Assembly: GCA_048938855.1 (NCBI GenBank) | Contig: JBHLLT010000002.1 | Span: forward strand, 32,001 to 96,000 | Length of the DNA stretch: 64,000 nucleotides | Direction: 5' to 3' | Source: Promethearchaeota archaeon | GTDB lineage: Archaea > Asgardarchaeota > Lokiarchaeia > Sigyniarchaeales > SOKP01 | Shown here: piece by piece, positions 11,788 through 32,234 of the stretch | How positions within the stretch are numbered: position 1 is the first letter of the stretch | Layout of the letters: the number at the start of each line of letters is the position of its first letter | Notes under the pieces: generated by a model | What the model saw: the letters and a program-made list of their open reading frames with translations, nothing else | What the model was told of the DNA's origin: nothing | The model's database searches: none | Program-made: the position numbers and the translations under genes

Positions 11788-11962
11788 TGGGCCATCGGGG
11801 ATTTTCATGCTTTTTTTAATCAATCAAGCTTTTTGAACCCCGGATCTCAGGTTTTTACTTTCTCAGACAATTTTACTTAATGTATGTCCGATGGTCATTT
11901 ATAAGACCTGCGCTTGTTGACCAAGCACCTAAACCTTGTTAACCAAGCTAAGCAAATGGCCC
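11788..11962 (-). tRNA. tRNA-Ile(TAT) with three BHB introns (21/22: 11916-11939; 37/38 or 38/39: 11853-11898; 59/60: 11802-11831)
   Basis: Spliced 75-nt cloverleaf: GGGCCAT TT GCTT AGCTTGGTTA AAGC G CAGGT CTTATAA ACCTG AGATC CGGGG TTCAAAT CCCCG ATGGCCC A. It has A73, C4-G69 and a short variable loop. Confidence 0.85.
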
Positions 11963-12114
11963 AAATCAATTGAAATATAAAATTATTATAAACTAATTAA
12001 ATCAGAAAAAAGATAAAAATTTTTTTATTGGAGTACTCTGTTATATTTATAATTGAAGTGATAAAAAGAGAGATCTTTATATCAAAAAATAAAAATTGAA
12101 AATGTTGAATTAAT

Positions 12115-12528
12115 ATGGCTGAAATGTTAACAGATTTGCTTCAAAATATCTATAAAAGGATTGCGCAATTAGGACAATCTATTCAACAGCTTAACGAGTC
12201 TATTAATAATCTAAATCAGAATATTGAAGACAAGATTGCAAAATTAACCTCAAAATTAGAAGAATTCTCTAATGAGATAAATCTTACTCAAACTAAACAT
12301 ATTGATGCTGTAAAGGAGATTGGAGCAGGAACAACTGATGAATTAAAAGTAATCCAAGAAGGATTAGGTTTAGCTGCTTTAAAAAACTTAATTAAAAAAC
12401 TAGAGGATTTTTCCAAGCTTTCTGAAGGTGTTCTTAACCAAGATACTGTAAATTTACTATTATCAGAAGCAATTGATTCTGTTAAAAGCCTTAAAAAATC
12501 TATTAAAGAAGAAGAGGTAATGGAATAA
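12115..12528 (+). CDS. Coiled-coil hypothetical protein
   Basis: Heptad-rich, 137 aa; abuts the next gene. Confidence 0.65.
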   Translation: MAEMLTDLLQNIYKRIAQLGQSIQQLNESINNLNQNIEDKIAKLTSKLEEFSNEINLTQTKHIDAVKEIGAGTTDELKVIQEGLGLAALKNLIKKLEDFSKLSEGVLNQDTVNLLLSEAIDSVKSLKKSIKEEEVME

Positions 12529-12948
12529 ATGGCTGAAGCTTTATTAGATCAAATGATCCAAAAAATAAATCAGATTATGGCTTCATTAGATGGGACAATA
12601 GCTCAGATTAACCAAATGAGAGGTTCAATTAATCAGATGAGTCAGAATTTCTCTGAACAAACAGTAGCTATGACAGAAAATATTAGATTAATAGTAGAAG
12701 TCTTAAAACAATTTCGTGTGCAATCCACAAAAAGTCTTACTGACCTATCCGATGATTTTAATCAAAAAGTAAAAGAACTCTGGGAAAAAAAATCTATAGA
12801 AACAATAACGGAAGAAGAAAAGAAAGCTATTGACATTATAAAACAAGCATCTAAAGCAGTAACAGACAATCTTTATTTTGCTCAATTATTGAATATAATT
12901 CAGAGTATAAGAGAAGAAACCAATAGGATAATTAGTGCTAGTCAATAA
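12529..12948 (+). CDS. Coiled-coil hypothetical protein (probable paralog of the upstream gene)
   Basis: Similar size and N-terminus (MAE.L.D....I...I..L...I.Q.N.SI). Confidence 0.65.
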   Translation: MAEALLDQMIQKINQIMASLDGTIAQINQMRGSINQMSQNFSEQTVAMTENIRLIVEVLKQFRVQSTKSLTDLSDDFNQKVKELWEKKSIETITEEEKKAIDIIKQASKAVTDNLYFAQLLNIIQSIREETNRIISASQ

Positions 12949-13021
12949 CAAATTTTTAATTTTTTTAAACTTAGTTTTAATTTAGTTCAGTATTATATAT
13001 ATAAAAGGTGTATAAGTTTAA

Positions 13022-29970: not shown

Positions 29971-30723
29971 ATGAAATTTAATATATGCATTCCAATTCCA
30001 ATTAGAAATCCAAGTATACAAGTAGTTCAACCTATAATTGAAAGAGTATTAAAAACTAATGCTAATTTAATTGAGTTAAGATTTGATTATATTACGGATT
30101 TCAAATCAATTTCTATGGAATTCCTAACCAGCCTGTCTAAAATTATTTCTCCTCAGTCTACTATTATATTTACTTTCAGAGATCCATCTGAAGGAGGACA
30201 TGTTCAAATTCAACAAGAAGATCGCTTCAATATTTATAAAATGTTTATTAATGCTAAACCAGATTATATTGACATTGAAATGGCTTTAGATAATAAAATT
30301 TTGGATGAGTTGATAAACCTAGCTCAGCAAAATAGAGTGAACTTGATCTTTTCTTATCATGATTTTAGCAGAACTTTCTCATTTGAAGAAGCAAGAAATT
30401 ATATTCTAAATTTCGAATCTAGATTGGCTCAGGAATTACATATAGATCAAAAATTGTTTGAAGAGCTCATTTATAAGATAATCTTCACCGCGAATACATT
30501 TGAGGATAATCTAACTCCATTAAAACTTTGTAAAGATATCTCCAGTTCTAAAAAGAAAATTATATCTTTCTGTATGGGACCATTAGGTGTTTTTTCTCGA
30601 ATTATTTGCGTTATTACTGGGTCATATTTAACTTATGCTTTTCTAGAAGAGTCTGAAAAGACAGCAGAGAGTCAGATTCAGATTGAAAAAATGAAGGAAA
30701 TTTATGATTTAATTTTAGATTAG
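29971..30723 (+). CDS. aroD: Type I 3-dehydroquinate dehydratase
   Basis: IELRFD, FTFR...EGG, YIDIE, SYHDF, MG..G..SR. Confidence 0.9.
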   Translation: MKFNICIPIPIRNPSIQVVQPIIERVLKTNANLIELRFDYITDFKSISMEFLTSLSKIISPQSTIIFTFRDPSEGGHVQIQQEDRFNIYKMFINAKPDYIDIEMALDNKILDELINLAQQNRVNLIFSYHDFSRTFSFEEARNYILNFESRLAQELHIDQKLFEELIYKIIFTANTFEDNLTPLKLCKDISSSKKKIISFCMGPLGVFSRIICVITGSYLTYAFLEESEKTAESQIQIEKMKEIYDLILD

Positions 30724-30792
30724 CTCTAAATTCTTCATTTACGAAAATTTTAATTATGAAGATTAAAAAAAGTAGATTTTTTAAATTAATAT

Positions 30793-31998
30793 ATGGTTGT
30801 TTATTTTGCCTTTTTATTCCATATTTATCAACCCCCAGTGCAAATTCCAATTGTAATCAAGCAAATTGTAAATGAATCGTACAAACCAATAATAGAAGCT
30901 TTAAAAGATAATCCAGATGCGAAACTGGCTCTTAATATAAACGGAACTTTAACTGAGCAACTCCACGATTTTGGGTATGACGATTTGATTAGTCAAATTG
31001 CTACTTTAGCCTCCAACGGACAAATTGAATTTACAGGCTCTGGAAAATTCCATCCTCTACTTCCTTTGATCCCTGAACCTGAAGTCAAACGCCAAATTAG
31101 TCTTAATAATGATACAAATCGACATTTTTTTGGTAAACATTATAATCCTTCCGGATTTTTTCCACCGGAAATGGCTGTATCTGAAGAAGTATTTAAAACC
31201 GTGAAAAAAGCAGGTTATAATTGGATTATTATGAGTGGAATTGCAAATACCTTACCAGAGTTTCCTACAAACTATATATCGGTTCATCCGAATGGATTAA
31301 AATTGATATTTAGAGATGATTATATTTCAATTGACTGTGCTTTTGATAAAATTGATAATGTTGATGAATTTATTAAGCGTCTATATTATAAGCACACATC
31401 TGAGGATTATTATGTCATATTAGCTATGGATGGCGAGACTTTTGGACACCATGTTAAACATGCGATAAAAAATTTTTTAATTCCGTTATTTCAGGCACTT
31501 CCCCATAGAAATGATGTAAAGATATGTACTATCTCAGAAATTATAGAAAAATTTCCTAAAGGTTTTACTCAAGTTCCACGAGATTCAAGTTGGTCAACAA
31601 TGCCATACGATATCGCTACAGATGTTCCATATCCGTTATGGTTCGATCCCCAAAATGAAATCCACATTGAACAGCATAAATTTTTCATGTATGCACTTAC
31701 ATTAATCCATCTTTCGACTAAATATCGCGATGCTATGGATGACGAGAAAAAAAGGATATTTGATAATGCTCGAAATCTGTTAGATCGGGGAATTCATAGC
31801 TGTCAGCAATGGTGGGCATCGCGTAGACCTTTTTACAGTCCAGATATGATTCTGCGTGGATTAAATGAAGTATTAATGGCTAGCGTAAATGCAAAACGTA
31901 GCATACCTGAGAACGCACCAGATATTAGAGATGCAATGGAACTTATAATGGAAGATATGCTAAAAGCACAAAATAAAATTGTTTTATCTTTAATTTGA
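30793..31998 (+). CDS. Glycoside hydrolase family 57
   Basis: H.YQP, GFFPPEMA, MDGETFGHH, SSWS. Confidence 0.9.
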   Translation: MVVYFAFLFHIYQPPVQIPIVIKQIVNESYKPIIEALKDNPDAKLALNINGTLTEQLHDFGYDDLISQIATLASNGQIEFTGSGKFHPLLPLIPEPEVKRQISLNNDTNRHFFGKHYNPSGFFPPEMAVSEEVFKTVKKAGYNWIIMSGIANTLPEFPTNYISVHPNGLKLIFRDDYISIDCAFDKIDNVDEFIKRLYYKHTSEDYYVILAMDGETFGHHVKHAIKNFLIPLFQALPHRNDVKICTISEIIEKFPKGFTQVPRDSSWSTMPYDIATDVPYPLWFDPQNEIHIEQHKFFMYALTLIHLSTKYRDAMDDEKKRIFDNARNLLDRGIHSCQQWWASRRPFYSPDMILRGLNEVLMASVNAKRSIPENAPDIRDAMELIMEDMLKAQNKIVLSLI

Positions 31999-32034
31999 AA
32001 ACCTAAATAGGAAAAAAAAGAAAAAAATCAGAAT

Positions 32035-32234
32035 TTAATCTTTTTTGAAAATATTACCACAATCGCCGCACTTCATATTTTTTGCATAGACTGGCGTGCC
32101 CTGCTTCAGCGGTAAGCTGAAATAACTTTACCTATACTATAGTAAAGCACGTTTTTCTTGTCTGATTCTTCATGAAGCTTACGTGGATTCTCATTGCCAC
32201 ATTGAGGACATTTTACTCTTTTGAATTCAGGCAT
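32035..32234 (-). CDS. Small zinc-ribbon protein (56 aa), spliced: exons 32234-32134 and 32104-32035; missed by the ORF track
   Basis: Spliced MPEFKRVKCPQCGNENPRKLHEESDKKNVLYYSMQGTPVYAKNMKCGDCGNIFKKD*; the two CxxC halves lie in different frames in the DNA. Confidence 0.72.
32105..32133 (-). other. Putative BHB-type mRNA intron (29 nt)
   Basis: Central helix TAGT/GCTG, bulges AT^A and AA^G, inner helix GGTAA/TTACC, exon helix GTGCTTT/AGGGCAC; contains the in-frame TGA. Confidence 0.72.

Follow-up and report, generated by a model that had tools for sequence, protein, structure and literature searches.

Short inserts interrupt conserved protein-coding genes as well as transfer RNA (tRNA) genes of a Lokiarchaeia archaeon, and these are very probably true bulge-helix-bulge (BHB) introns, excised from precursor tRNAs and precursor mRNAs by one and the same pathway. 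The inserts were met in a stretch of 64,000 nucleotides (nt), here called the window, from a Promethearchaeota assembly (GCA_048938855.1, contig JBHLLT010000002.1, positions 32,001 to 96,000; contig C49 in our numbering). The host assembly (G000) comprises 3.95 Mb at 30% GC and is 97% complete, with a contamination of 7%. The host genome's own Lokiarchaeia family is labelled f1 throughout. The nearest relatives of its ribosomal protein uL11 carry the public labels Promethearchaeota or Lokiarchaeota, and close homologues also lie on contigs with the prefix LAZR, which we take to be of the Loki's Castle type.

A sequence-only reading of the window had described nine introns of 17 to 46 nt in four genes, six of them in tRNAs and three in mRNAs, and all nine were confirmed in place. 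The claim that eight of the nine end in AA also held, the exception being the D-arm intron of tRNA-Ile, which ends in AC. A 4-nt central helix had been ascribed to every intron; it is complete in eight (4/4, G-U pairs counted) but reaches only 3/4 in the second uL11 intron, where a U-U mismatch intervenes. When the introns are excised in silico, cutting after the second base of each 3-nt bulge, the products are two clean tRNAs, a uL11 of 164 amino acids (aa) and a zinc-ribbon protein of 56 aa, all matching intron-less relatives. In each mRNA motif one BHB takes in both cut sites. Folded singly, the introns give weak whole-fold z-scores (-0.5 to -2.25), and the case for the window introns is built instead on homology, covariation and null tests. 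As to the hallmarks of spliceosomal, group I and group II introns, the 17-46 nt introns follow no GT-AG rule and no Rfam intron match occurs in the window.

The uL11 gene, on the minus strand, provides the most detailed evidence. Its first exon (25457..25506, 50 nt, GTG start) matches the intron-less uL11 of relatives and is followed by a frameshifting intron of 37 nt with the central helix UGGG/CCCA (25420..25456), a micro-exon of 21 nt or seven codons (25399..25419), a second intron of 36 nt with an in-frame stop and a strong exon helix (25363..25398), and the third exon (24939..25362), from which public gene callers derive a truncated uL11 of 146 aa. Across relatives, 96.5% of the cells in the predicted structure of intron 1 are paired and four pairs have changed on both sides; the covariation score was reached in none of 500 shuffles, and structures slid out of register drop to 30-55%. 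One of these relatives' differences is a compensatory U-A to A-U change within the central helix, which pairs exon with intron, and central-helix variants are present at other mRNA insert sites as well. Four intron sites fall within 50 nt of the gene, which carries between zero and three introns. At site 71 the intron length ranges from 29 to 36 nt and covers all three frames, and a stop is found in all 19 insert variants whose length is divisible by three.

In public collections, intron-bearing uL11 appears as truncated proteins of 118-146 aa beside intron-less alleles of 164-165 aa in the same 90% cluster (the P0001 cluster and others). The full-length proteins P0002, P0004, P0131 and P0139 were considered as possible spliced transcripts and rejected, their sources being genomic or metagenome-assembly contigs. 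The full-length uL11 sequences used for comparison are thus intron-less alleles rather than cDNA, because their synonymous codons differ. Junction bases of the nearest intron-less relative do not settle the cut register, third positions being too variable.

The zinc-ribbon gene is also on the minus strand. Its exons (32134..32234 and 32035..32104) are separated by a frameshifting BHB intron of 29 nt (32105..32133), and the junction of intron-less relatives reads YYSMQGTP, in which the conserved Met codon is recreated by the BHB cut only. The spliced 56-aa protein was assigned to no family with confidence. In the corresponding gene at locus L118 (minus strand), a second intron of 31 nt lies 17 nt downstream of the first, which it resembles, and the same six exon bases precede both; this is the clearest sign of intron copying. 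A second zinc-ribbon domain (C34:289780) was examined as an interrupted gene and rejected, since it reads through without a break. Two longer proteins, encoded on C34 near 285636 (plus strand) and 289780 (minus strand), end in a domain resembling the small zinc-ribbon protein, which suggests a Loki-specific zinc-ribbon family.

The occurrence of BHB-type introns in tRNAs and mRNAs alike proved to be genome-wide, as the sequence-only reading had proposed. Inserts were defined without any motif assumption, by spliced protein-to-DNA alignment against intron-less relatives, which returned clean, disruptive inserts of 28-37 nt with near-identical flanks. Among 792 orthologues aligned against 1.6 Mb of genome G147, three genes (four introns) were interrupted. 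Further interrupted genes were located and checked, namely those for RNase HII, uppS, AMP phosphorylase, an MBL-fold hydrolase, a CoA-transferase (two introns) and an FGGY kinase, and a candidate insert in a LURP-one-like gene (C6:135358) comes from the ab initio scan alone. In all, 13 inserts were located in the host, affecting 11 of its roughly 3,500 genes. Private BHB inserts of 29-31 nt were found in two other genomes, at C7:314179, 426918 and 432998 of G207 and at C1:76174 of G147; the four hosts are a 467-aa conserved protein, a ferredoxin-type Cys motif, a rubredoxin-type Cys motif and an AAA ATPase Walker A motif. We estimate that 11-25 protein genes per genome, or 0.3-0.7% of genes, carry inserts. 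With a load below 1% of genes, this is a sparse system, which the earlier description as an exon-intron organisation overstates.

Frame-restoring BHB motifs had been expected to exceed controls, and among homology-defined inserts the enrichment is strong. At 12 of 14 such sites (four in uL11, four in the zinc-ribbon gene, one each in cdhC and an RHH regulator, three private to G207 and one to G147) the BHB score gave P<=0.03 when compared with the real insert set into random coding sequence at the best of seven registers; these P-values are indicative, because the score weights were set after the window had been viewed. A score of at least 12 was attained at 12 of the 14 insert sites versus 6 of 129 in-frame, stop-free control insertions. 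A conserved residue is restored in the BHB register in the zinc-ribbon gene, cdhC, RNase HII and AMP phosphorylase, and at least three of the four central-helix pairs form in 11 of the 13 mRNA inserts of the genome. The mRNA introns also sit in GC-richer conserved motifs, as had been stated earlier. A central five-base loop ending in UC (the NNNUC pentaloop), noticed post hoc, occurs at 12 of 21 mRNA sites, where about one is expected, versus 5 of 31 tRNA introns.

In two ab initio scans, joins that arise by chance between adjacent genes made up the bulk of the output, and the enrichment test was flat and without power, because the dozen or so true sites are invisible in that background. A candidate in an mvhD-like gene (C64:8308) was rejected, its TGA most likely encoding selenocysteine; this gene (C64:8000-8600, plus strand) has in-frame TGA at two Cys-type positions, where selenocysteine is probably inserted, and mimics an intron in such scans. 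Also met among the false candidates were stretches of contigs C11, C19 and C30 with a GC-rich codon use unlike the remaining assembly, which are possibly part of the 7% contamination.

The enzymes expected of this pathway are encoded in the host genome: a two-subunit EndA with the crenarchaeal specificity loop, RtcB and archease. There are two EndA paralogues. That on C93 aligns best with the alpha subunit of Aeropyrum EndA and has retained the catalytic triad of Tyr, His and Lys as well as two residues, Lys and Arg, of the crenarchaea-specific loop, which confers broad specificity in Aeropyrum (PMC3241643), while that on C34, in which the catalytic His is missing, is consistent with a beta subunit. 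The RtcB and archease genes adjoin on C81. A permissive endonuclease had been held responsible for the colonisation of mRNAs; the broad-specificity enzyme is indeed present and probably necessary, but it leaves the pattern unexplained, an orthologue of the alpha subunit occurring in 70 of 71 Asgard genomes. EndA thus permits introns without explaining where they accumulate, because it is near-universal in Asgard archaea and yet most genomes have unbroken copies of the tested genes. Intron load has likewise been reported as unexplained by EndA (bioRxiv 10.64898/2026.10.13.758758).

In the scheme we propose, the transcript would fold so as to place a 4-bp helix between two 3-nt bulges, an (alpha-beta)2 EndA bearing the crenarchaeal specificity loop would cleave between the second and third bases of each bulge, and RtcB, helped by archease, would join the exons. 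Genomes of f1 would each hold about 11-25 protein genes with one to three AT-rich hairpins of roughly 30 nt. As the introns break conserved protein genes, the messages of these genes very probably need splicing. The inserts would persist in strongly conserved motifs, which do not tolerate imprecise loss and offer the best chance of recombination between strains; the introns would act as small passenger elements of fast turnover that are copied from one site to another and are exchanged along with a short stretch of adjoining exon. A more far-reaching proposition, to which we give about an even chance, is that these non-coding mini-introns of about 30 nt, with their NNNUC pentaloop, are actively spreading, being copied into fresh BHB-compatible positions of conserved protein genes and passed from strain to strain in short conversion tracts without an enzyme of their own, and that tRNA-type splicing is both routine and essential for the mRNA of a prokaryote.

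Turnover at the uL11 sites is rapid. On an exon 3 tree of 91 sequences, the four sites changed state 13, 16, 4 and 18 times, the states at site 100 are clustered no more than shuffled labels, and near-identical strains (2-5% apart) differ in their introns. Pairs that are less than 7% apart in exon 3 and discordant for introns show 15.5% divergence over the 84 nt of flanking exon versus 4.3% in exon 3; the corresponding values for concordant pairs are 3.7% and 3.2%. Distant carriers of the intron at site 50 share its flanks, which differ by 9% versus 26% for non-carriers. These patterns fit a movement of intron-plus-flank patches by recombination, alongside selection on the fold. Likenesses across sites were also noted: the RNase HII intron resembles that at uL11 site 83, and one variant at site 100 resembles site 71. 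Three cross-site pairs are similar at P ~0.0005-0.0008. Clear copies of intron sequences elsewhere in the genome were absent beyond chance AT-rich matches, and neither an RVT_1 reverse transcriptase nor a match to a crude LAGLIDADG motif was found in the 97%-complete host genome.

Several points weigh against splicing by BHB excision or against active spread. Cleavage and ligation in the cell, like the copying of introns and their spread by conversion tracts, are steps that we infer. Besides the score weights having been fixed once the window introns were known, the uL11 and zinc-ribbon sites are partly non-independent, and the reference sample of the census, 1.6 Mb plus 0.8 Mb from two genomes (2.4 Mb), is small. 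The inserts of uppS and the FGGY kinase form only 2/4 of the central helix. In a single genome, the underpowered ab initio scan returned 1184 candidates with 3+3 bulges versus 1130-1183 for decoy geometries. In the intron-discordant uL11 pairs, upstream non-coding DNA differs by 22% versus 5.5%, and some of these pairs may be chimeric contigs or the result of longer recombination tracts. Finally, the P-values for copying fail a strict correction for 861 site pairs.

The distribution of the inserts among Asgard archaea bears on their age. Split or weakened matches to the uL11 N-terminus are concentrated in f1, with two weak matches elsewhere, and no short insert was seen in 30 uL11 loci of other families, a sample of best-scoring matches in which intact genes are favoured. 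Longer, stop-containing matches occur for RNase HII in 14 of 25 f1 genomes, for AMP phosphorylase in 6 of 26 (plus one frameshift at the same site) and for uppS in 3 of 19, and none of these inserts appeared among the matches listed for the other Asgard genomes searched. The dnaG gene shows a break around residue 25-30 in roughly 15 of the 24 f1 genomes and in every sampled member of families f5, f9 and f13 (outside f1: G011, G043, G052, G060, G067, G096, G122, G006, G017, G076, G002 and G014), the coordinates in G011 implying an insert of 28 nt; at that site it is unbroken in the host genome, the sister family f2 and the remaining families. Introns in mRNA would accordingly seem to reach several Asgard lineages, with a multi-gene load documented for one family, f1. 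Most insert sites look recent.

An older origin would make the inserts a regulated splicing layer of the Ire1/XBP1 kind, inherited from the Asgard ancestor and a forerunner of eukaryotic exon-intron organisation. The split of dnaG in four Asgard families would suit such an inheritance, but dnaG is unbroken in most families and in the host genome, and the length-plus-stop inserts of RNase HII, uppS and AMP phosphorylase were seen in f1 alone among the listed matches. The targets do include translation, lipid and carbon-fixation genes; uL11 states, however, flip between strains 2-5% apart, which is unexpected for a regulatory switch. RtcB is the ligase of metazoan XBP1 splicing, a point in favour, but spliceosomal introns derive from group II introns, and the chemistry of BHB splicing is unrelated to lariat splicing. 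We consider this origin very unlikely. The sequence-only reading had gone further and seen a pre-spliceosomal state in the lineage closest to eukaryotes; this lacks support in view of the strain-level changes in uL11, the small load and recent phylogenomics, which place eukaryotes next to or within Heimdallarchaeia, not Lokiarchaeia (PMC12222021).

It is very unlikely that the inserts are bypassed at translation, by ribosome bypass, frameshifting or readthrough, or are cut by some other nuclease, their likeness to BHB motifs being incidental. All the inserts form hairpins that bring in a stop or shift the frame, the pentaloop could be a site for another factor, and the uppS and FGGY inserts fit the BHB model poorly; bypass nevertheless would not account for covarying pairing between exon and intron in the central helix, for the coincidence of the protein-restoring register with the BHB register, or for lengths spanning all three frames at one site, and the 21-nt micro-exon would demand two precise hops. 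That the inserts are pseudogenising insertions or assembly errors, the cell using truncated proteins, is scarcely credible and is largely refuted: although the assemblies are metagenomic, that of the host contaminated to the extent given above, and gene callers do yield truncated uL11, insertions at identical sites are seen in dozens of independent assemblies whose frames are otherwise intact, uL11 and RNase HII were each found in single copy, the inserts split catalytic motifs, and the third codon positions flanking uL11 site 50 are better conserved in carriers (0.87 vs 0.50).

Excision of BHB introns from mRNA, the reading we prefer, has few precedents. A BHB intron in the cbf5 pre-mRNA is known from Sulfolobales and Desulfurococcales (Watanabe 2002; Yokobori 2009, PMC2738675). 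It shares with the f1 introns a short BHB intron in coding sequence, an (alpha-beta)2 EndA with the specificity loop and lineage-specific loss, but it is one intron in one gene, inherited from the ancestor of two orders, whereas f1 shows 11 or more interrupted genes per genome, as many as three introns in one gene, a micro-exon of 21 nt and turnover between strains; the host cbf5 is itself uninterrupted. In Haloferax volcanii, HVO_1309 has a BHB intron in its 5' untranslated region (UTR) (PMC7714728). Like the f1 mRNA introns it is an EndA substrate on an mRNA, in vivo in that case and as judged from sequence in ours, but it is a single case that leaves the reading frame unbroken. The searchable literature reports a BHB intron within archaeal coding sequence for cbf5 only, plus the Haloferax 5'-UTR case, and no paper on Asgard mRNA introns was found, most subscription papers lying outside the search coverage. 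What is new here is the gene census, the turnover and the signs of copying; the difference from cbf5 lies in number, multi-intron genes and turnover.

Mechanistic parallels exist outside the archaea. Splicing of XBP1 by Ire1/RtcB and of HAC1 by Ire1/Trl1 is protein-only cut-and-ligate mRNA splicing with a cyclic-phosphate end and a change of frame. The f1 introns would share the protein-only cut-and-ligate chemistry and the frame change, and to that extent the likeness to Ire1/RtcB splicing drawn earlier stands; regulation is unsupported. Ire1 is unrelated to EndA, is activated by stress and reads two separate stem-loops, whereas in the f1 introns one BHB spans both cuts. Homing crenarchaeal rRNA introns, group I introns and inteins prefer the most conserved sites and spread patchily with co-conversion of flanks; the f1 mini-introns resemble them in both respects, but at about 30 nt they encode nothing. 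They are best seen as a parallel to the spread of eukaryotic introns rather than as its ancestor.

With about a dozen conserved genes per genome needing splicing, a prokaryote with coupled transcription and translation would be able to carry multi-intron mRNAs, even with a seven-codon exon. The truncated calling of marker genes in these Asgard genomes (RNase HII, and uL11 at 118-146 versus 164 aa) touches both annotation and phylogenomics. The family f1 also lends itself, as a natural test bed, to the study of BHB intron arrival; were the introns indeed spreading elements, intron gain could be caught in progress. Multiply interrupted tRNA genes are known in Thermoproteales and Asgard archaea, and that work found no general route of arrival (PMC11291895; bioRxiv 10.64898/2026.10.13.758758); the latter, which mentions neither mRNA nor cbf5, names the arrival of BHB introns as the central open problem. 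The published systems show non-canonical D- and T-arm sites, up to three introns per gene, repeated gains and a widespread two-subunit EndA; the window's six tRNA introns belong to this established type. The published work covers tRNA only, whereas here protein genes are hit, with signs of copying and conversion tracts.

The two interrupted tRNA genes of the window were both missed, unspliced, by ARAGORN and Rfam, but their spliced products are recognised by ARAGORN as tRNA-Ile(tat) and tRNA-Ser(gga). The tRNA-Ile(UAU) gene (11788..11962, minus strand) has a D-arm intron of 24 nt with a 4/4 central helix and both outer helices formed (11916..11939), a relaxed anticodon-loop intron of 46 nt at position 38/39 (11853..11898), where the relative G207 has one of 53 nt, and a T-loop intron of 30 nt at position 59/60 (11802..11831). 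The tRNA-Ser(GGA) gene (20192..20356, plus strand) has a D-loop intron of 33 nt (20214..20246), absent from this gene in G207, a canonical 37/38 intron of 17 nt (20263..20279) and a T-loop intron of 30 nt at position 58/59 (20311..20340). Introns, mostly of 22-33 nt, were found in at least 21 of 32 recovered host tRNA loci, a partial census in which several anticodon calls were mis-parsed. Elsewhere in the window, all on the plus strand, a tRNA-Sec gene that is intron-free here, versus two introns in G207, is followed by SepSecS (the two together at 9348-10829), and a gene for RtcA, the RNA 3'-terminal phosphate cyclase (15967-17025), lies between the two multi-intron tRNA genes. The eL34 gene (18828-19106) has no ATG, GTG or TTG start and apparently begins at an ATT preceded by an AAGGT motif, a layout that recurs in G207.

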